DNA of 32,000 nucleotides from an uncultured Lachnospiraceae bacterium (GCA_910579865.1 CAJTXA010000001.1:161852-193851), one strand, 5' to 3'; positions 1 through 28,515 are shown, counted from the first letter of the stretch. Program-made: numbers and translations. Notes: generated from the sequence alone by a model not told the origin.

Positions 1-715
1 TCTTCTGATATACTAAAAAAGTAATCGTTAATAAAATTCCTACTATTCCAAGCATAATATAAAGAAAATTTTCATAATCTTCTTTTAAAAGTATCATACA
101 AACAATATAAAAGACAATACTAATTCCAAGCAGTACAACCGCCCATTCAACTGCTTTTTTTGCAACTGTTTTTTTTGACTGCAATTCATCTTTTTCATAA
201 CGAATCGATGTCTTTTCTGCTTCTAAATGCCGCATATCTTGCTCTAATACATGTGCATACTTCTCTTCTTCATCTAGTTGAGCCATCATCGGACGAATTG
301 ATTCTCCATATTCTTCCATTTTTTGGTACTGCTTTTCACTAATCTTGCTTTCTGTACTTTGAAATTTCTTTCGCTCTTTATTAATCTCATCAATCCGTGT
401 TGCAGCATCTAACAGTTCTTGGCGATCTTTTTCCTGAATTTCTTCAATTTTTACAACATCATTCAATACACTTCCAATCCTTGCATATTCTTCTTTTAAC
501 TCAGAAAGTTGCCTTTTTGCTACTTTTTTCTGCTCATTTAAATGTTTAATATATTCAAAACATTCCTCCTCACTCTCCAATCGATAGGCTTTTTGTATTT
601 CTAGTTTTGCATAACCAGTTTTGTTTTCACCATCAGCACCTAGATATTCCTGAATTGTCGGTTTTCCCTCCAAAGAAGCCTTTTTTCTTTTAAAAAGTTT
701 TTTCCAAAATCCCAT
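1..715 (-). CDS. hypothetical coiled-coil membrane protein (partial; 3' end runs off the window)
   Basis: Manual minus-strand translation from the ATG at 713-715 gives MGFWKKLFKRKKASLEGKPTIQEYLGADGENKTGYAKLEIQKAYRLESEEE.... It stays open for 238 codons down to position 2. It is absent from the ORF track because there is no stop in the window. A long K/E/Q-rich helical (coiled-coil-like) region is followed by two hydrophobic helices (WAVVLLGISIVFYIVCMILL and LYIMLGIVGILLTITFLVY). The start is 6 nt after the stop of the upstream gene. Confidence 0.7.
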   Translation of the reverse strand, partial: MGFWKKLFKRKKASLEGKPTIQEYLGADGENKTGYAKLEIQKAYRLESEEECFEYIKHLNEQKKVAKRQLSELKEEYARIGSVLNDVVKIEEIQEKDRQELLDAATRIDEINKERKKFQSTESKISEKQYQKMEEYGESIRPMMAQLDEEEKYAHVLEQDMRHLEAEKTSIRYEKDELQSKKTVAKKAVEWAVVLLGISIVFYIVCMILLKEDYENFLYIMLGIVGILLTITFLVYQK

Positions 716-721
716 ATTTCA

Positions 722-2866
722 TCAACCTTCCATCTCATACCGATACTCTTCCATCCATTCTTGCAGTTGCTTTTTTGCATACTCCTCAAACTGACCTAGT
801 TTTCCTTGTCTGCGACAACTCAACGCTTCCGCTGCCAAATAATTTCTATCATCTTGTATTGCTTCCTCTTCTTGTTTTTGCCACTCTCTTTCCCATTGTA
901 TGACCTGCTCTTTTTTTGTCTTTTTCTTCCACTCGGTATAGTCTACCTCCATACCAGCCATTTGCAATGTAAGTAAAAGTTTTTTTAAAATCTCATCCTG
1001 CGGCATATACTCGTATGCCTGTTTTAAAAATTCAGATGCTTCTTCAAAATAAAACAGTTCCATATAAAGTACACCAATATTGTGATATACCATACCAAAA
1101 AATTCCCTTGATTCCCCAGAAGCAGCTTCTAACTTTAATAATAATTGATACTGATTTCTAGCCTGAACATATTGTCGTTCCGTCAAATACATATCTCCTA
1201 ACAGCTTCAATCGTTCTTCCCTGCTTTGTGTTCCAAAATAAGCTAATTTCTCTTTCATCCTTTTCCACTCTACTCCCCTATAATAACCTGTACTCTCCAT
1301 CACAATTGTAATTAGCTCCCCTAGTGGAGCTTTTTTCTTTTTCGCATATTCTAACTTATCTGCCAAAAGATTCATTTCCAAATTATTTCTGATAAAATCC
1401 ATTAATTTTTGACTAAAAAATGTTTCTTCTAATAGATAATTATTATGATAAAGAAAATAACAAAGTTCATCAATTGAATACAATGCCTGTCTACTTTCTT
1501 CTATTTCAAATGGATAACGACTTCTTTTGCTGCCGCACAAAAGAAACCGACCAGTTGCTTCTGGTTCTTCTTTTTCTACAATACCTGAAAGAAGTTCCTC
1601 CACTTTTAGCTTTTTTTGAATTACAGTTCCACTACTTTCTGCATACTGTCCAAATCCTAAATCTGTAGCTTGAAGAATTGCTTCTTCTTCGGATAGAAAA
1701 GAAAGCGACACTTCCACTCGGGTCATTCTTGGTTCCCGATAAGGAAATTCAGAAAGCGGAAGCCGATACTCTAATTTCCCTAAAACTCCCTGCCTTGTAA
1801 TTACAAAAGAAAGCTCTGTAATCTCATCTAAAATTCCTTCTATCTGTGCTTTTGCATGATACCAATATTTTCCCTCTTTTACCAAATTCAGCAGCTTTTT
1901 CTCTTCTCGATAAAAAACACAAATTCCAATACTAACGGAAATGCAGCCTTTCATTCGCATTGTAACAGAATCCATCAACCGTCCAGTAATATGATCAAAT
2001 GCACTTAAACTGGCTCCTTTTGTATATAAATTCATCCCTAAAAATACACGTTTCCTGCTGCAAAGATATTTGAACGTCCGAACAGCCCAATTTTCTTTTT
2101 GGCAAAACCCTTCTCCTATCAGATAGACACAACTGACAGGAGGCCTTACAATCTGCTGCATGAGCAATTCCAAAAAACTTTGATCTGCCTGCTGCCTGCC
2201 TTCCTCTGATTCTAATAAAGAAATTGGAAACAATTCCGAATAATCAATTTCTTCCATTTCTAAAATAATCTTCTCTGCTTTTTGATTTCGATGCAGTTTT
2301 TTCATAATAAAATGTTCCTGTGAAAAATCAAAAAACAACACATCCTGCTTCCAAAGCTCCTTTGGTCTGCTTAATGCATAACAGGCAGCACTTTCTTGCT
2401 CACTCATAGCAAAAATACAATTTTCTTTTATTCCAAGCCGCATCAGACAACGAAATAAAACATCCAATAAAAGGCCATTCTGCTCCCAAAGAGAAATCGC
2501 AACTGCATCTACTTCCCGTCCAATCATCTCCACTCCCGGAATAAAAAGCAGAGTTTCTCTAAGAAAAATTTCAAGCAATTCTTCTGCCGAATATCCATCT
2601 AATACTTCCATTTCCTGATGAAGAACACGCAAAATAAGCTGATCTACTACGATACCTGTCTGTTCAAACTGTGCTGTCAATGCCTCCTCTCCAACTACCC
2701 ATCCCTGTTCCGTCTTAGCTACCAGACAGGGAATTTCATAATCAATTTGGCTGGCAAGAGGACTGACTGACTCCGCATCTTCTCGATCTTCAATATAAAA
2801 GCTAAGTTGTACCTTATTTTTTTGGATATCATAACCTGCTACCAGTTTCTTTTCCAACTTCTCCAC
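722..2866 (-). CDS. uncharacterised Hsp70/actin-fold-like protein with degenerate nucleotide-binding motifs and a C-terminal TPR-like region (possibly Pfam DUF5716, from memory)
   Basis: 714-aa ORF. The N-terminal ~290 aa are collinear with the DnaK NBD. An SBD-beta-like segment includes RVEVSLSFLSEEEAILQATDLGFG. The C-terminal helical repeats include ARNQYQLLLKLEAASGESREFFGMVYHNIGVLYMELFYFEEASEFLKQAYEY. The GTG start at 2864-2866 is 1 nt after the upstream stop, and a TTG 9 nt further in is an alternative start. Confidence 0.85.
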   Translation of the reverse strand: MEKLEKKLVAGYDIQKNKVQLSFYIEDREDAESVSPLASQIDYEIPCLVAKTEQGWVVGEEALTAQFEQTGIVVDQLILRVLHQEMEVLDGYSAEELLEIFLRETLLFIPGVEMIGREVDAVAISLWEQNGLLLDVLFRCLMRLGIKENCIFAMSEQESAACYALSRPKELWKQDVLFFDFSQEHFIMKKLHRNQKAEKIILEMEEIDYSELFPISLLESEEGRQQADQSFLELLMQQIVRPPVSCVYLIGEGFCQKENWAVRTFKYLCSRKRVFLGMNLYTKGASLSAFDHITGRLMDSVTMRMKGCISVSIGICVFYREEKKLLNLVKEGKYWYHAKAQIEGILDEITELSFVITRQGVLGKLEYRLPLSEFPYREPRMTRVEVSLSFLSEEEAILQATDLGFGQYAESSGTVIQKKLKVEELLSGIVEKEEPEATGRFLLCGSKRSRYPFEIEESRQALYSIDELCYFLYHNNYLLEETFFSQKLMDFIRNNLEMNLLADKLEYAKKKKAPLGELITIVMESTGYYRGVEWKRMKEKLAYFGTQSREERLKLLGDMYLTERQYVQARNQYQLLLKLEAASGESREFFGMVYHNIGVLYMELFYFEEASEFLKQAYEYMPQDEILKKLLLTLQMAGMEVDYTEWKKKTKKEQVIQWEREWQKQEEEAIQDDRNYLAAEALSCRRQGKLGQFEEYAKKQLQEWMEEYRYEMEG

Positions 2867-2867
2867 C

Positions 2868-5800
2868 TCACATTAGTGTACTGTTCTTCTCAACCAGTTT
2901 CTGTTTCCTTAAATAAAGCTCCATCTGCTCTGCTAATGTTTGCTCATCTTGCATTTCAATAGAAGCACACATATCATTTAAAATATCATATCGGCTCTCT
3001 CCATAGACGCTGTTCCAATGATGAATTTGAATTACATCGCTTTCATTCAAACCACTCTCTCCCTCTTTTTCTTCCGAAATATAATACTGCAATTTCTCTC
3101 CATAAAACAAAATCATCTGTTTTCCATAAATTCCTTCATAGATATGTTCCATCTTTTCCATACGATACTTAAGCCGTTCTTTCTTTTCTACATCCAGACT
3201 ATAGTGCAGATATACTTTACTACCTGGTTCTGTTCGATATTCCAAAATTGTTTTATCCCGTAAAGCAAATGGCAAAATAATTCGTTCTGCTAAACTTTGA
3301 TAAAAAGAGAAATACGTGCCATTTAAAGAAAGCAATTCTAAAATCTGTCCTGCTATCTCTTTTTCTACCTCTGTATTTTTTTCTTTTCCTGCTAACCAAG
3401 AAAGAAGTGCCATTTGGCAAATTGGAAGAAGTGTCTTTTGTAACTGATATTCTCGTATCAAATATTGAAAAATCTTTTCATCAATTACAATATCTTGTAC
3501 AAAATACAGATAAGACTGCCAAGCAAGATATGCCTCCTTTACCATCTGATTTCTGCCATCCTTATAATAAGATGAAAAAATTTCTGGCATAAGCACAGCT
3601 TTTGTAAACAATGCTTGTACTAAAATTCGTTCTTCTAACTCTGTTGTATCCATCTCAAAATCAATTGCTGATTTCCAAAGATGGCACATTTCTTTTGTTG
3701 TATTATTATAATATTGTACCAAATATTTTAAAATAGTTTCTTCATATTTTCCTTTTTGATAAACACTTGCACATAATTTTACTAGCTTCTCATTTTCTGC
3801 CATCTGTAATTGATGAATCTGATGAATACAAAGACGCAATAAACGATTGGAAGTAATCCCTTCAAATCCATACTTTTCTATCATTTCCCATGCCTCTTCA
3901 TACCGATTGCGAATAATAAAAAGTTCAATCACCTGTCTACTCTCTCTTATCTCAAGTGATTCCTTATAGACCGAATCTAAATATTGTTCTAACTGTTCTC
4001 CTTCATAATTTTCCATATAGTAATCCAAAATATGTTGGATAATCTCACTTTGATAGGCTTTTTTCAAAAGTGGAAAACTCATTGTTTCTTTAAAAAATCC
4101 CATTCTATCATTTTCTTCTGCTAAATATCCTGCTTCATGTTCCCCCATATAAAGCCATAGCCAAACATCCCCATTTACTAAATTTTTACAATCCTTTATC
4201 AGCCCTTTTTCTTCTATTAAATCCTCAATCTGATACTTTGTATGATTTAAAAAACGTCTCCCTTTTCTATCTTCAAATACAATCACACAATCTGAGGTAT
4301 ATACTGGAAAATAAACCTCTCCCTGTTCTAAAGGCAATTTCCATTCACAGTCCATCTCTTTATGCCGAACAATTACAAAGCTCACCTTTTGATCCCAACA
4401 TTGTAATCGTTTCGTAAGAAGAATGGCTGGCAATTTTTCTGCAACTGCTTCATCTAAAATTGCCGATGAAAGAATCCCCCGATAAATACAAGCTAATTTT
4501 TTACTAATATGTCCTTTTTTTAACTGTTCTTCTGCAAACTGTTCAATGGCTGGCAAATAATTTCGCAACATAACTGGATTTTCTGCACCATAAGAAACAA
4601 TATTACTATAAAGCAGTTCTTTTCGTTCTTCATCTAATGCCTGATCATAGATAAAGTATAATTGAATTGACTTTGGCAGCTCCCCTTGAAATGTATAAGG
4701 AAGTGTATTCATATATGCTTCATATAATCCTGTCATTGTAATTTGCCGCTGCACTCCCTCTTGAAACCAAATAAAATTTTTTTGTTCTAAACGAAAATTT
4801 CGAATTAATTGTGATAACAATGCCTCTAATGCAGTTTTACTTCGATAACTTTGATAAATAACTTTTAAAATCTGAACCAAAAGCGGCTGATAGCTTTGTT
4901 CTGCTAATGCCTGATCTGCAATCTGCAAAGCTGCTTTTTCATTTAATATCCCACGTGAAATTCCCCACCATGCTGTTCGAAGTTCAAATCGATCCAATAC
5001 TCGAATTAATGTAGGCAGTTCATTCATAATCATACATGCTTCATAATACAAAAATGAACTATTGCTTCCTGTAAAAGACTGTTCTTTAATCTTTGTTAAA
5101 CGAAGACTTTTATTTATGGCACATTCTTCATCTAAATACAAAATTACCCACAACATCCTGCCATCTTTGGGATATTTTTCATATAATTCCTTTACTTGTA
5201 TTGCCGCATCTTTTGCAAATAAACTATCCCTTGTTAAAAGTGTATAAACATAGAGATAATAGCTATATAAAAATGGCTCTTCTTCCCGACTTGAAGTAAT
5301 CCACTCTGCTATCACTGACAATTTCTTTGCGGCTTCTTGATTGCGCCGCATTGTAATCCATACTTGTATTTCTAATAGTTGAATAAAAATATCTTTTGAC
5401 TGTAATTGTTTCATTTTAGAAATGGTTTCTAAAGAATCCCGACACCAGATATCCGTTGTAATTTCATGTAACCGAAATGCAAAATAAAGTTTGGCAAGCC
5501 GACAAATTCCTTTTTTCCACTCTAATGTACAATTCTCTTTTTCTACATAGCGATAGACCAAAAGCTCATATTCTAAACTTTGATAAGGCGTTTCGATATA
5601 AATTTTTCCAAGATTATACCCAGCATGTATCTTACTTTCTTCAATCTGATAAGACAAGGTAAAACTATTTCCAGCGAATTCTTCTGTTGTAAACTGACTT
5701 CGTTCCAAAAGAATAAAATCCCCATCGGTATAAACCTCAATTTCCATATATCCCCAAGTATCTTTTTTTATCTCCAACTGATCCCCTATTGTCTGTGTAA

Positions 5801-6413
5801 AATCCAAATACTCTTGCCGATCTTGTTCTAATAATAATACAATACGACTTTTCTTATTTACACAAACAAGGAATTCCTCCATTGCTGTATTTGGAGAAAT
5901 CCCATAGCATAATGTTTCATATATTGTCTGTTCTCTAGGTAGCCCTGCTAATAATACTCTGGAAAATTCAGGAGAAAAGAATAATGTCAATGCTTCTTCA
6001 TAATGATTTTTAACCAGATTTGTAAAATGAAACAAATTTTTTATCTTTCCCATAGAACTATTGATATACATTTCTTCTACAATAATCTCATATGGAATTG
6101 CTAATTCTCCCGCATCAGAAACAACTTGAATCAATCCTTTTAACCGTTTTCCTGGTTTTATCCCTCTTGCATGTGCTTCATAATGAATCGTTGTATGTTT
6201 TCCAATAAAGCTACTTTCTTTTAGCACTAGATAAGCACTGTCAGAATAAAGTAACCCACGAGCATCAATTCCATTTTGACTATCAATTGAAAAATTTCCC
6301 AATAAAATTCCTTCTGTCGGAAGTAAAATCTGAATGATTTCTACAGAAACAGTTAGTTCTGGAATGGTTTTATCAAATATTCCTTTTGCCAGTTTGCTTA
6401 TCTTTGTCCTCAT
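2868..6413 (-). CDS. uncharacterised 1181-aa protein with apparent beta-rich modules and helical repeats (possibly Pfam DUF5717, from memory)
   Basis: Long uninterrupted ORF. The ATG at 6411-6413 is preceded by AGGCGG about 8 nt upstream. The N-terminal ~110 aa look beta-rich (GNFSIDSQNGIDARGLLYSDS...GLIQVVSDAGELAIPYEIIVEE). Further beta-rich segments lie near aa 205-290, 680-730 and 1060-1130, separated by long helical stretches. I found no Walker A, HD, HxxH or other catalytic motif. Confidence 0.9.
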   Translation of the reverse strand: MRTKISKLAKGIFDKTIPELTVSVEIIQILLPTEGILLGNFSIDSQNGIDARGLLYSDSAYLVLKESSFIGKHTTIHYEAHARGIKPGKRLKGLIQVVSDAGELAIPYEIIVEEMYINSSMGKIKNLFHFTNLVKNHYEEALTLFFSPEFSRVLLAGLPREQTIYETLCYGISPNTAMEEFLVCVNKKSRIVLLLEQDRQEYLDFTQTIGDQLEIKKDTWGYMEIEVYTDGDFILLERSQFTTEEFAGNSFTLSYQIEESKIHAGYNLGKIYIETPYQSLEYELLVYRYVEKENCTLEWKKGICRLAKLYFAFRLHEITTDIWCRDSLETISKMKQLQSKDIFIQLLEIQVWITMRRNQEAAKKLSVIAEWITSSREEEPFLYSYYLYVYTLLTRDSLFAKDAAIQVKELYEKYPKDGRMLWVILYLDEECAINKSLRLTKIKEQSFTGSNSSFLYYEACMIMNELPTLIRVLDRFELRTAWWGISRGILNEKAALQIADQALAEQSYQPLLVQILKVIYQSYRSKTALEALLSQLIRNFRLEQKNFIWFQEGVQRQITMTGLYEAYMNTLPYTFQGELPKSIQLYFIYDQALDEERKELLYSNIVSYGAENPVMLRNYLPAIEQFAEEQLKKGHISKKLACIYRGILSSAILDEAVAEKLPAILLTKRLQCWDQKVSFVIVRHKEMDCEWKLPLEQGEVYFPVYTSDCVIVFEDRKGRRFLNHTKYQIEDLIEEKGLIKDCKNLVNGDVWLWLYMGEHEAGYLAEENDRMGFFKETMSFPLLKKAYQSEIIQHILDYYMENYEGEQLEQYLDSVYKESLEIRESRQVIELFIIRNRYEEAWEMIEKYGFEGITSNRLLRLCIHQIHQLQMAENEKLVKLCASVYQKGKYEETILKYLVQYYNNTTKEMCHLWKSAIDFEMDTTELEERILVQALFTKAVLMPEIFSSYYKDGRNQMVKEAYLAWQSYLYFVQDIVIDEKIFQYLIREYQLQKTLLPICQMALLSWLAGKEKNTEVEKEIAGQILELLSLNGTYFSFYQSLAERIILPFALRDKTILEYRTEPGSKVYLHYSLDVEKKERLKYRMEKMEHIYEGIYGKQMILFYGEKLQYYISEEKEGESGLNESDVIQIHHWNSVYGESRYDILNDMCASIEMQDEQTLAEQMELYLRKQKLVEKNSTLM

Positions 6414-6447
6414 ATGTTTTACCGCCTGTTTCGATTTTTATTAGGCT

Positions 6448-6477
6448 ATTATACCACGATCCCCCTTCTTACGGCAA
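6448..6477 (-). promoter_or_regulatory. sigma-A-type promoter with extended -10 for the three-gene operon
   Basis: The minus strand reads TTGCCG, then an 18-nt spacer ending in TGG, then TATAAT (the TGnTATAAT form). It lies about 30 nt upstream of the ATG at 6413 and only 8 nt downstream of the xer stop codon. Confidence 0.55.
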
Positions 6478-6484
6478 GCAGTTC

Positions 6485-7315
6485 TTACAAATACATCTGT
6501 GTGGTCTGTATATCAGAATGTCCCATCATCTGCTGTACCACATGAATATTCGTTCCATTTTCAATTAAATGAGCTGCAAAAGAATGGCGTAGTGTATGAG
6601 GTGTAATCTCTTTTTTAATTCCTGCCTGATTTCCATATTGTTTCATTAATTTCCAAAATCCCTGCCGACTCATCGCTTCTCCAGAACAATTAATAAAAAA
6701 ATAATCCGATTCTCTCCCTTTTAACAATTCTGTTCGTGCATGTTTCAAATATTCCTCTAATGCCTGTTTCGCCTTTTTATGAAAAGATACAATTCGTTCC
6801 TTTTCTCCTTGTCGTAAAACACAAAACCCCAACTGCATATTAATGTCCATCATAGTAAGTCTTAACAACTCAGAAACCCGTATTCCGGTTGCATACAAAA
6901 GTTCTAACATTGCTCTGTCACGAATTCCTTTTTTATTTTCTTTGGATGGTTGTTCTAACAAATAATTTACCTCTTCCACTGTCAATATTTCAGGCAGCTT
7001 CCGTTCTACTTTTGGTGCCTTTAAATTCCAAGAAGGATCGTTTCGAATGATCTCTTTGTAATATAAATAATGAAAAAATGACTTAATTGATGCAATATTT
7101 CTTGAAATAGAAGATGCTGCACTCTGACTTTTCTCTAAATAAAGTACATAGGCATTTAGCCAAGTTTCTGTTACCTCCTCTACTTTTTGAATATCCTGTC
7201 CCTTTAAATAAAGTTCTAACTTCTTTAAATCTCTTTTATAAGAAATCTCTGTATTTGAAGATGCATGTTTTTCTTGTAATAGATATGCAGAAAACTGCTC
7301 AATTTCCCTCTCCAT
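6485..7315 (-). CDS. xerD: tyrosine site-specific recombinase, XerD/XerC family (short C-terminus)
   Basis: SAM-like N-domain (SNTEISYKRDLKKLELYL). Catalytic set present: ATGIRVSEL (Arg), HTLRHSFAAHL (HxxR), MGHSD (His) and TTQMY (Tyr). I prefer the start at M27 of the track ORF (MEREIEQFSAYLL, GTGGAGG just upstream). The longer track start overlaps the upstream gene and has no RBS. Synteny with spoIIM and nudF resembles the B. subtilis ripX region. Confidence 0.75.
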   Translation of the reverse strand: MEREIEQFSAYLLQEKHASSNTEISYKRDLKKLELYLKGQDIQKVEEVTETWLNAYVLYLEKSQSAASSISRNIASIKSFFHYLYYKEIIRNDPSWNLKAPKVERKLPEILTVEEVNYLLEQPSKENKKGIRDRAMLELLYATGIRVSELLRLTMMDINMQLGFCVLRQGEKERIVSFHKKAKQALEEYLKHARTELLKGRESDYFFINCSGEAMSRQGFWKLMKQYGNQAGIKKEITPHTLRHSFAAHLIENGTNIHVVQQMMGHSDIQTTQMYL

Positions 7316-7367
7316 ATAGCCTCCACTCTGCCCTATTCTTCTTTTTAAACCGTTTTTCTTATATTCA

Positions 7368-7943
7368 TTATCGGACAAGTGTAATAAATTCATAATACTT
7401 TTGTAAAATTGCTGTATTAAAATAAGCCTCCACTATTACACCAATAAAAAAAATTAACAAAATTTTGAAAGCTAAAACTCCTTTTCTCTCTTTTCTTACA
7501 AATCCTTGCATCCCTTTCCAATCCAATCCATAGAAAAAATAGTGTGGAAATAAAAGTAAAATAAACTCTAAAACACCAAGTATTCCTCTTTGATGACACA
7601 GAGCAGATTGTAAAATTCCTGCTGATAACCCATAATAAAGTGCAAAGAAAAAACGAACTTGTTTTTGAAAACGTGTCATCTCACAAAACCACAATAACAA
7701 AAATCGCTTCCCTCGTCTTTCTAAAATATACCATAGTAATCTACCATGCAAAATTTTAACCTGCTGATAGCCCATCTGTGACAAATTCATCGCAATTAAA
7801 AACTGTTCGGTATAACGTCCTCCATGAAAATTAAAAATCAACGTACCTGCTAAAATTCCTACTAAAAACCAAATTGCATAGATTCCCTCACTTTTTTGCA
7901 AAGCTGTATATGGAATTTGTTTTCTTTTTTCCACTGCTTCCAT
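7368..7943 (-). CDS. spoIIM: polytopic membrane protein, stage II sporulation protein M-like
   Basis: 191 aa with 4-5 hydrophobic helices. Its position between a NUDIX gene and the xer gene matches the B. subtilis nudF-spoIIM-xerD neighbourhood. The family call rests on topology and synteny, not on a search. Confidence 0.5.
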   Translation of the reverse strand: MEAVEKRKQIPYTALQKSEGIYAIWFLVGILAGTLIFNFHGGRYTEQFLIAMNLSQMGYQQVKILHGRLLWYILERRGKRFLLLWFCEMTRFQKQVRFFFALYYGLSAGILQSALCHQRGILGVLEFILLLFPHYFFYGLDWKGMQGFVRKERKGVLAFKILLIFFIGVIVEAYFNTAILQKYYEFITLVR

Positions 7944-8024
7944 ATTCTTAAACCTTCTTTTTTCTTTTACTAGGATATATGTTAGCTTGTACGCATCTAT
8001 TCCTATATTTTCTTTCTATTCTTT

Positions 8025-8564
8025 TTATTTTTGCAAATATTTCGCTTTATAAGCCATCAATCCTGCAATTGTTTTTGCATCTCTTATTTTTCCAGAAAAA
8101 ATCATTTCTTCTAACTGTTCCATTTCCCATTCTTCTACATCAATAAATTCATCTTCGTCCAAATGCTGTCTAGAAGAAACTAATCTTGTTGCTACATATA
8201 CATCAATTCGCTCATCACAAAATGCTACCCAGCTGTCCAATGTAATAAGATGTTCTAATTTCTCACAGCGATATCCTGTCTCTTCTTCTAACTCTCTTTG
8301 TACGCACACTGCTGGATCTTCCTTACCATCTCGCTTTCCTGCTGGAATTTCAAGTGTCTCTCGATTAACAGCATTGCGATCTTGCCGTACCATTAGAATT
8401 TTTCCTTCTTCTGTCACTGGAACAACTGCAGCAGCTCCATTATGTTTAATAAAATCATATTCTACTACCTTTCCATCTGGCAGTTTAATTGTATCTTGAT
8501 ACACCCCAATAATTTTTCCCTGATAAATTAATTTTCGATTTAATCGTTCCTGTTTCATTTTCAC
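8025..8564 (-). CDS. nudF: NUDIX hydrolase, ADP-ribose pyrophosphatase-like
   Basis: Nudix box GKRDGKEDPAVCVQRELEEETGY. About 179 aa, the typical NudF size. The start abuts the proC stop. Confidence 0.8.
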   Translation of the reverse strand: MKMKQERLNRKLIYQGKIIGVYQDTIKLPDGKVVEYDFIKHNGAAAVVPVTEEGKILMVRQDRNAVNRETLEIPAGKRDGKEDPAVCVQRELEEETGYRCEKLEHLITLDSWVAFCDERIDVYVATRLVSSRQHLDEDEFIDVEEWEMEQLEEMIFSGKIRDAKTIAGLMAYKAKYLQK

Positions 8565-28425: not shown

Positions 28426-28427
28426 AA

Positions 28428-28499
28428 CTCCCCGAGCAGGGCTCGAACCTGCAACAACTCGGTTAACAGCCGAGTGCTCTACCATTGAGCTATCGAGGA
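28428..28499 (-). tRNA. tRNA-Asn (anticodon GTT), CCA not encoded
   Basis: The minus strand reads TCCTCGATAGCTCAATGGTAGAGCACTCGGCTGTTAACCGAGTTGTTGCAGGTTCGAGCCCTGCTCGGGGAG. It folds into a cloverleaf with a 7-bp acceptor stem, D arm GCTC/GAGC, anticodon stem CTCGG/CCGAG with loop CTGTTAA, and T arm GCAGG-TTCGAGC-CCTGC. Confidence 0.9.
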
Positions 28500-28515
28500 A
28501 AATCTATCTTTTCTT

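Follow-up and report, generated by a model that had tools for sequence, protein, structure and literature searches.

A stretch of 32,000 nucleotides (nt) from an uncultured Lachnospiraceae bacterium (GCA_910579865.1, CAJTXA010000001.1:161852-193851; the window) begins with a block of three minus-strand genes. This block is one copy of a chromosomal four-part module, reduced to three genes here because its second and third parts are fused. The parts were named A (DUF5717), B (DUF5716, Hsp70-like), C (tetratricopeptide repeat, TPR) and D (a coiled-coil protein with two transmembrane helices). The comparisons described below define a well-delimited, widespread and uncharacterised system with an unusual Hsp70 derivative at its centre. 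The four-part composition, the descent of B from Hsp70, the recurrent fusion of B with C, and the partners C and D, which are in no family catalogue, were all undescribed.

The genes, as delimited by open reading frame (ORF) calls, and a promoter-like site are located in the window as follows.

1..715, minus strand: gene D (partial), the first 238 of 395 codons lying inside the window.
722..2866, minus strand: gene B-C, coding for a 714-amino-acid (aa) fusion protein; GTG start, stop codon included.
2868..6413, minus strand: gene A, coding for the 1181-aa DUF5717 scaffold protein; ATG start, stop codon included.
6448..6477, minus strand: sigma-70-type promoter-like site TTGCCG, 18 nt, TG-g-TATAAT, in the 71-nt gap between the xer stop codon and the operon.

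A previous reading of the window made from the sequence alone (the sequence-only reading) had described three tightly packed genes, and both the ORF calls and the sequences of the junctions confirmed its coordinates. The A/B-C junction reads ...ATG TGA g GTG..., the TGA at 2868-2870 being separated by one base from the GTG at 2864-2866. At the B-C/D junction, which reads ...GGT TGA tgaaat ATG..., six bases lie between the TGA at 722-724 and the ATG at 713-715. Gene D, which continues beyond the edge of the window, was retrieved in its complete form of 395 aa from public metagenome contigs encoding an identical 714-aa protein (L001:12152-13339). In L001 it is followed by an inverted repeat and a T-rich run (recognized by eye), likely a terminator, and by approximately 770 nt of non-coding DNA. 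The promoter proposed at 6448-6477 was found as the top-scoring promoter-like site of positions 1-8200 (10 of 12 matches plus an extended -10 element). However, consensus promoter matches occurred overall at chance frequency in the same scan (33 found versus 31.4 expected), and its assignment as the promoter of the presumed operon is plausible only. No riboswitch or other RNA family was found near the operon.

In a species-level scan with one genome per species, at least 558 genomes had a DUF5717 relative. The locus comparisons cover the best 80 of these at least 558 loci, in which ORFs were called and searched with the window proteins; nearly all of the 80 belong to Lachnospiraceae or unclassified Clostridia. 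The order A, B (~420 aa), C (~275 aa) and D (~395 aa) on one strand was conserved in all 76 loci that could be assessed, and the loci in which a module gene was missing (L007, L025, L035, L073) all end at a contig edge. The median intergenic gaps are short (13, 17 and 11 nt for A-B, B-C and C-D, respectively). The ancestral unit is four genes. The genes of the system proposed by the sequence-only reading thus co-occur in a conserved order, and their number of three reflects the fusion of B and C in the window lineage. Clustering of the neighbours in the 80 loci revealed no fifth gene conserved with the module, only lineage-specific housekeeping genes.

The two parts of the fusion protein map to the window as follows.

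1604..2866, minus strand: part B, residues 1-421 of the 714-aa protein, a degenerate lid-less Hsp70; a separate gene of ~420 aa in most genomes.
725..1549, minus strand: part C, residues 440-714 of the 714-aa protein, a TPR-containing helical domain; a separate gene of ~275 aa in 77 of 80 related loci.

Where C is separate, as in Kineothrix alysoides (L053), it lies between the Hsp70-like gene and the membrane-protein gene, and its product is homologous to residues 426-714 of the window protein. Among the loci retrieved, genes 2 and 3 are fused in the window lineage only (L001-L008). In L009 and L010, the unfused relatives nearest to the window, the ORFs of B and C share 4 nt, and loss of a stop codon is therefore sufficient for fusion. 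An exhaustive profile search with the Hsp70-like part returned 1,891 clusters at 50% identity (E up to 0.001), most of them ~420 aa long; fused forms of ~700-737 aa were 8 of the best 150 of the 1,891 DUF5716 cluster representatives. The fused forms do not group together in a neighbour-joining tree but have unfused proteins as their nearest neighbours, indicating that fusion arose several times. The 714-aa protein is therefore the product of a fusion, specific to its lineage, between the Hsp70-like gene and the TPR gene next to it, and the repeated occurrence of such fusions is good evidence that B and C work in physical contact.

In Pfam searches the 714-aa protein matched DUF5716_C (PF18980) with E 1.7e-75 (254.2 bits against a cutoff of 34.7, residues 122-421), whereas the N-terminal 120 residues of B fall outside every Pfam and NCBIfam family. 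An AlphaFold2 model built with 23 homologues (repeating the search with the DUF5716 alignment, in word-indexed form, retrieved no proteins beyond these 23) had a mean predicted local distance difference test score (pLDDT) of 86.9 and a predicted TM-score (pTM) of 0.72. In this model part B consists of an actin-fold nucleotide-binding domain (approximately residues 1-296) and a sandwich resembling the beta portion of the Hsp70 substrate-binding domain (residues 301-421). Foldseek comparison of the B-C model with the PDB gave Hsp70s for all of the top 50 matches. The match to DnaK (7kru_A) had an E of 6.2e-16 over ~554 aligned columns, and further matches were Hsc70, BiP, mortalin, Ssb, Ssz1 and Sse1/Hsp110. 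The DnaK alignments span the nucleotide-binding domain as well as the beta-sandwich, in agreement with the Hsp70 shape suggested earlier. In sequence the relationship is faint. When the DUF5716 profile was compared with the PDB, Geobacillus DnaK ranked first at E 0.089, with the first strand of B (GxDL versus GIDLG) and the last sandwich strands (LPxRPxxxTRv...DLG) aligned to DnaK. An hhalign comparison with E. coli DnaK (an approximate sequence) was collinear and insignificant (probability 3%, E 0.014), and is not relied on here. The identity between B and DnaK is only ~12%. Single-sequence PDB searches with the module proteins gave TPR noise only. The model thus places B in fold-level homology with Hsp70, faintly visible in the sequence.

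B shares with DnaK of the DnaK/DnaJ/GrpE system the order of an actin-fold domain followed by a substrate-binding sandwich, and the sandwich of the fused B-C form leads into a helical domain, as that of DnaK leads into the lid. The differences are substantial. The nucleotide-binding domain is ~90 residues shorter than that of DnaK, and a lone helix (residues 215-239 in the model) replaces lobe IIB, which in canonical Hsp70s contributes one half of the pocket for adenine and is where GrpE docks. A motif census of 151 representatives found no GTT or GGG phosphate loops. The equivalent of the catalytic Lys70, conserved in DnaK, varies among them, with Q in the window protein. E158 is retained in just 72%, and D180 in 66%, with E in another 19%. 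The HSP70 model of Pfam/NCBIfam (PF00012) did not match the 714-aa protein at E up to 0.1. The helical lid is absent from B: most family members stop directly after the beta-sandwich, at ~420 aa, and the helical domain that follows B is a TPR domain, usually on a separate protein. The most invariant motif of B, D402-x-G-F-G (98-99%), is at the end of the sandwich, where the lid of an Hsp70 would begin and where the TPR joins in the fused forms; fused C is attached exactly at the expected start of the lid. Pfam and NCBIfam scans of the module proteins detected neither a J-domain (with its conserved HPD motif) nor a GrpE-like exchange factor or an effector. The fetched loci contained no dnaK gene. 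Upstream of gene A no CIRCE operator was found in 75 loci, only one poor CtsR-like match; the heat-shock operator is thus another respect in which the module differs from the DnaK system. B descends from a characterised superfamily, yet it fails the features that define Hsp70. It is not filed as an Hsp70: the sequence model does not match, lobe IIB, the phosphate loops and the lid are missing, and so are the cofactors. The absence of homology to any functionally characterised family holds for the sequence searches but not for the fold of B.

The TPR-like tail noticed by the sequence-only reading was corroborated by a profile of the C family and by the model. With the single sequence, Pfam TPR matches remained below threshold (residues 555-624, TPR_2 22.9 bits against 27), whereas the C-family profile matched consensus TPR proteins with E 7e-42 to 1e-14, and natural TPRs with E 7e-8 and weaker. 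In the AlphaFold2 model residues 465-714 of the 714-aa protein form paired helices. Among many TPRs the profile weakly matched SGTA, Tah1, FKBP51 and Hop, which reflects generic similarity and not orthology.

Gene A codes for the giant protein in which beta-rich and helical-repeat segments had been suspected to alternate. It is a clear member of two Pfam families, DUF5717_N (PF18984; E 6.5e-261, 868.4 bits against a gathering cutoff of 25, residues 1-870) and DUF5717 (PF18983; E 4e-93, 312.4 bits against a gathering cutoff of 25, residues 875-1176). The families named for the two large proteins in the sequence-only reading, DUF5717 and DUF5716, were thus correct. The AlphaFold2 model of A, based on 62 homologues (mean pLDDT 87.0, pTM 0.60), resolves the suspected segments into sandwiches and solenoids, arranged as follows.

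6375..6410, minus strand: basic amphipathic N-terminal helix, M-[RK]-x-K-I-x-[KR]-L-A-[KR]-G-I-F, residues 2-13.
5550..6356, minus strand: residues 20-288, two immunoglobulin (Ig)/ASH-like beta-sandwiches (20-124 and 193-288) with a helical bundle between them (127-184), from the model.
3285..5534, minus strand: residues 294-1043, TPR-like alpha-solenoids (294-665 and 738-1043) with a small beta domain between them (667-731), from the model.
2874..3254, minus strand: residues 1054-1180, C-terminal beta-sandwich (1054-1129) and helical hairpin (1141-1180), from the model; equivalent to most of the Pfam DUF5717 C-terminal family.

The N-terminal motif is conserved, as judged by column frequencies in the 62 homologues. 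It has a hydrophobic moment of 0.62 and is modelled as a helix at residues 2-9, which may bind the membrane or a partner. The most conserved motif of the family, NLFHFTNLV, opens the helical bundle at 127-184. Foldseek matched the sandwiches to ASH-domain proteins of the ciliary central apparatus, to the SPD-2 domain of CEP192 and to PDB entry 2qsv, and the solenoids to the TPR solenoids of Naa15, an IFT-A subunit, Ski3 and the Ctr9 type; a viral structure library yielded generic BACON/Ig-domain matches only. These are matches of single domains. The domain order of A had no counterpart in the PDB or the viral structure library, and there is no whole-protein analogue, as the query TM-score was 0.15 at most. 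A PDB profile search with A gave nothing meaningful. A is made up of just Ig/ASH-like sandwiches and TPR-like solenoids, with nothing catalytic among its fold matches.

The fourth part is encoded at the beginning of the window.

1..715, minus strand: D within the window, comprising a basic N-terminal peptide (MGFWKKLFKRKK), a ~170-residue coiled coil and a transmembrane hairpin at residues ~191-236 (window 8-145).

The N-terminal peptide is conserved and basic, with the consensus M-G-[LF]-F-K-K-L-F-x-K-K. A hydrophobic stretch of ~50 residues, with room for two transmembrane helices, was present in 73/73 D homologues, in accordance with the coiled-coil protein with two such helices predicted earlier. 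The best-conserved part of D is a C-terminal helical domain of ~160 residues, encoded past the window edge. D has no Pfam or NCBIfam family. A Pfam scan of all 73 homologues produced weak matches in the transmembrane region only (DUF2207_C in 19/73), a PDB profile search with D gave nothing meaningful, and in PADLOC D matched nothing but SMC-like models, weakly and through its coiled coil (E at least 0.0017). No transmembrane helix was found in A and B-C, and their N-termini, read by eye, are unlike signal peptides. This would make the cytoplasm the simplest location for the soluble parts of D. The sequence-only reading had seen no catalytic signature in the block, and searches of Pfam, NCBIfam, PADLOC and PHROGs likewise assigned no catalytic family to any product, the only matches there besides the DUF families and the sub-threshold TPRs being coiled-coil noise for D.

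The inheritance of the module was followed by comparing pairwise-identity matrices. Those of the four module proteins correlate with each other at 0.75-0.85, and with those of PurB and HtpG at 0.55-0.80 (PurB versus HtpG, 0.79). These correlations fit vertical descent with co-evolution. Over larger distances the module proteins diverge faster than these two highly conserved enzymes, being 32-44% identical where HtpG is 79% and PurB 85% identical. Among close relatives they diverge no faster than their immediate neighbours (75-84% versus 74-88% identity). From these sequence comparisons the module appears to be mainly vertically inherited. Six of the loci carry Bacteroidota-type labels of metagenome-assembled genomes (L014 Alistipes, L051 Muribaculum, L060 Bacteroides, L069 Odoribacter, L071 Bacteroidales and L083 Bacteroidaceae). 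The DUF5717 proteins of L069, L071 and L083 are 94-98% identical to that of a Lachnospiraceae contig (L068), and on this ground the occurrence of the module in Bacteroidota was rejected for these three loci as bin contamination. For L014, L051 and L060 the best DUF5717 matches were only 36-71% identical.

We propose that the module products form a non-enzymatic assembly or adaptor complex, tethered to the membrane at its cytoplasmic face and built around a pseudo-Hsp70 clamp, a reading to which we give about an even chance (probability roughly 0.5). A, B, C and D would form a single complex at the inner membrane face. In this complex B and C would act as a 'split pseudo-Hsp70', the sandwich of B clamping a peptide and C covering it in the position of the lid. 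The peptides clamped could be the conserved hydrophobic/basic N-termini of A or D, whose sequences look like motifs for Hsp70 binding or helices for membrane targeting, although this is speculation. A would offer a large repeat surface to one or more clients or partners, and D would tether the whole assembly to the membrane. The Hsp70 fold would serve as a stable adaptor, as it does in yeast Ssz1, and not as an ATP-cycling foldase, and the complex may serve the assembly or organisation of something at the cell envelope. The combination of a large scaffold, a chaperone-shaped adaptor and a membrane anchor put forward by the sequence-only reading matches the predicted structures. A more specific form of the proposal, which we hold only tentatively and consider clearly less probable than the general one, is a cell-biology machine specific to Lachnospiraceae. 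Here an Hsp70 descendant freed from ATP cycling would be a permanent peptide clamp with a TPR lid supplied in trans, coupling the superhelical Ig/TPR platform formed by A to the hairpin-anchored coiled-coil protein D on the inner membrane face. As an alpha-solenoid/beta-sandwich platform, a membrane tether and an Hsp70-type partner are combined, the module could also be a membrane-organising or coat-like assembly.

Several observations weigh against the adaptor proposal. The Hsp70 signal in the sequence is marginal in both the PDB profile search (E 0.089) and the hhalign comparison (3%), and the homology rests mainly on predicted structure. The idea of a peptide clamp is based solely on the likeness of two short N-terminal motifs to motifs of Hsp70 clients. 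The topology of D, with both ends cytoplasmic, derives from the localisation of its partners and a weak positive-inside signal, and the complex and its membrane localisation are predictions from sequence and models. The nucleotide motifs of B, which the sequence-only reading had called dead, are degenerate and not erased. They are gone as far as the glycine loops, the catalytic lysine and lobe IIB are concerned, but several residues of the cleft are kept: G11 in 94%, D13 in 88%, an acidic residue at 180 in 85%, G251 in 100% and G253 in 80% of the representatives. Judged from these residues, B could still bind a nucleotide or another ligand.

The main rival of the adaptor proposal, in view of the conserved cleft residues, is an active, specialised Hsp70 machine. 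B would still bind and hydrolyse ATP, perhaps with the help of housekeeping DnaJ and GrpE, or with C and D as non-canonical cofactors, in order to fold, unfold or insert a dedicated client cyclically at the membrane, and A would be the client-selecting platform. The beta-sandwich in its canonical position in the Hsp70 fold agrees with such a machine, and partnerships between TPR proteins and Hsp70 are well established in eukaryotes (Hop, CHIP, Tom70). In 31 of the 80 loci (e.g. L068:3849-5960), many of them divergent, HtpG, the bacterial Hsp90, is encoded one or two genes upstream of the module in the same orientation, ~3.8 kb from DUF5717. However, this linkage is no stronger than that of purB (44 loci) and may represent regional synteny. 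Furthermore, the loss of lobe IIB, of both glycine-rich phosphate loops and of the catalytic lysine, the lack of a J-domain or exchange factor in the module, the failure of the Pfam HSP70 model and the absence of a CIRCE/CtsR heat-shock operator upstream in 75 loci all speak against such a machine. We therefore regard an active machine as unlikely, though it deserves more credit than the two readings discussed next.

The actin fold of the nucleotide-binding domain, compact without lobe IIB, suggests another possibility, a cytoskeletal or division element. B would polymerise like MreB, FtsA or ParM, A and C would bundle or regulate the filaments, and D would tether them as PilN does for PilM or the membrane-targeting helix for FtsA. 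The membrane-anchored coiled-coil partner D, the likeness of the amphipathic basic N-terminal peptides of A and D to membrane-targeting helices, and the family-wide conservation expected for cell-biology genes are in line with this. Yet the top structural matches were all Hsp70s, the Hsp70-specific beta-sandwich included, and not MreB, FtsA, ParM or PilM. The phosphate-binding loops needed for nucleotide-driven polymerisation are degenerate, and none of the 80 loci showed linkage to dcw or mre genes, making a filament system improbable. The probability of an anti-phage or conflict system, in which A would sense an invader protein, B-C would be a switch and D would disrupt the membrane as a two-transmembrane effector of abortive infection, appears a shade lower still. 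Large TPR/Ig sensors and small effectors with two transmembrane helices are a common design in defence systems, one of the 73 D homologues weakly matched SLATT_4, and the module proteins are 32-44% identical where HtpG and PurB are 79-85% identical. Against this, their divergence follows that of housekeeping genes, with close relatives diverging no faster than the neighbours, and the module is present in every related genome examined in the same order. It is flanked by housekeeping rather than defence-island genes in DNA of uniform GC content. No PADLOC or PHROG family was matched beyond coiled-coil noise, plasmids do not carry the module, and of the 'phage' records that do, which are unverified gut contigs, the one examined is bacterial chromosome.

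If the adaptor proposal is correct, its closest functional parallels are Ssz1 of the ribosome-associated complex and Hsp110/Sse1, in which an Hsp70 fold acts as a non-cycling structural or regulatory partner, the role proposed for B. Ssz1, which pairs with the J-protein Zuotin at the ribosome, still binds ATP. Both proteins are eukaryotic. B is partnered by the 1181-aa scaffold, a protein with TPRs and a membrane protein, and nothing in the module points to ribosomes. The pairing of a TPR protein with an Hsp70-type protein is reminiscent of the TPR co-chaperones (Hop/Sti1, CHIP, SGTA, Tom70, Tah1). Co-chaperone TPRs bind a complete Hsp70 by its C-terminal EEVD tail, whereas C is encoded straight after, or is fused to, the sandwich of B, and no EEVD-like tail is visible. 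In pairs such as PilM-PilN and FtsA with its partner, too, the gene of a cytoplasmic actin-fold protein adjoins that of a membrane-anchored coiled-coil protein whose short conserved N-terminal peptide is cytoplasmic. In contrast to that arrangement, the fold of B is that of Hsp70, D spans the membrane as a hairpin of two helices and carries a large C-terminal domain where PilN is bitopic, and pilus and division genes are unlinked. A resembles the IFT-A, Naa15, Ski3, Ctr9 and ASH proteins (Hydin, CEP192) in single domains only. The Pfam entries of which A and B are clear members (DUF5717_N/DUF5717 and DUF5716_C) are placeholders without assigned function; they omit the four-gene module, the relationship to Hsp70 and the fusions, and C and D are in no Pfam or NCBIfam family. 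A literature search on both DUF families, the Pfam accessions and the architecture found no relevant paper, and no bacterial system of the same composition was found in the libraries and literature searched. We rate the system as lying outside the known kinds, on the ground that no function has been assigned to it and not that it works by a mechanism shown to be new.

Lachnospiraceae rank with the most abundant bacteria of the mammalian gut and with those most relevant to health, and to our knowledge their cell biology is almost unstudied. The cost of ~2,300 codons and the same gene order in every related genome examined indicate that the module is probably important for the family. Should the pseudo-Hsp70 clamp be real, it would be the first bacterial pseudo-Hsp70 scaffold. 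An Hsp70 lacking lobe IIB, the phosphate loops and the lid, and having a TPR domain in the position of the lid, would be a natural case of this kind, and B-C makes the reuse of the Hsp70 fold as an adaptor testable. The four proteins offer a concrete complex for modelling, purification and deletion.

The window genes other than the module are housekeeping genes. The neighbours encode a Xer-type recombinase, a 191-aa membrane protein, a NUDIX protein, ProC, an aspartate aminotransferase, a periplasmic binding protein, two type II topoisomerase subunits, an HD-domain protein, RF1, PrmC, a DUF1385 protein and Rho. GC content is 0.32-0.36 across the whole window. The sequence-only reading, which had seen core-gene surroundings and no mobile island, is supported in this respect. 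Elsewhere (80 loci) the module neighbours purB (44), HtpG (31), a PrsA-like peptidyl-prolyl isomerase (23, ~5 kb upstream of the module) and RarA (18), as well as purF, purC and ABC transporters. The loci with HtpG upstream present a noteworthy Hsp90/TPR/Hsp70-like neighbourhood. No linkage to division, cell-wall (dcw, mre), sporulation, motility or secretion genes was found in the 80 loci.

The module was carried by 0 of 72,556 plasmids in PLSDB. Four GenBank records from human faeces labelled 'UNVERIFIED: Bacteriophage sp.' contain it (MT835486.1, which is L087; MT835988.1; MT837190.1; MT835719.1). In MT835486.1 the full module is flanked by RarA, a polysaccharide deacetylase, valyl-tRNA synthetase and glycosyltransferases, and these housekeeping flanks indicate that at least this part is bacterial chromosome and not phage. 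The valyl-tRNA synthetase is split there into adjacent ORFs of 404 and 437 aa (L087:12287-14920), suggesting a frameshift or a sequencing error. A defence or phage origin of the module was considered and rejected, since PADLOC and PHROGs gave it no support and the viral structures gave generic Ig/BACON matches only.

The xer gene is conserved beside the module in close relatives only, and in a 75%-identical relative the gap between xer and DUF5717 is ~970 nt (L008:5270-6237), compared with 71 nt in the window. The gene of the 191-aa multi-pass membrane protein (7368-7943, minus strand) overlaps the start of xer (6485-7393, minus strand) by 26 nt. Its product had no Pfam, PHROG or precomputed family match, and its assignment as SpoIIM was not supported by Pfam. 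We take the arrangement of NUDIX, membrane protein and xer to be reminiscent of the nudF/spoIIM/xerD region of Bacillus. A single tRNA-Asn (GTT) gene at 28427-28500 on the minus strand was the sole RNA family match in the window. The GC skew of the plus strand is strongly negative, approximately -0.3, over most of the window, in which most genes are on the minus strand, and this negative skew together with the strand bias fits co-orientation with replication; the skew is weaker at ~22-26 kb, where three genes are on the plus strand. The DNA 3' of gene D, immediately past the left edge of the window, varies among strains with an identical operon (L001:13340-15750 versus L002/L003:13340-15143). 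One variant contains a small ORF, a tyrosine recombinase, CsrA, flagellin and glycosyltransferases, and the other contains hexapeptide-repeat and unknown ORFs, showing that the operon borders a strain-variable region.

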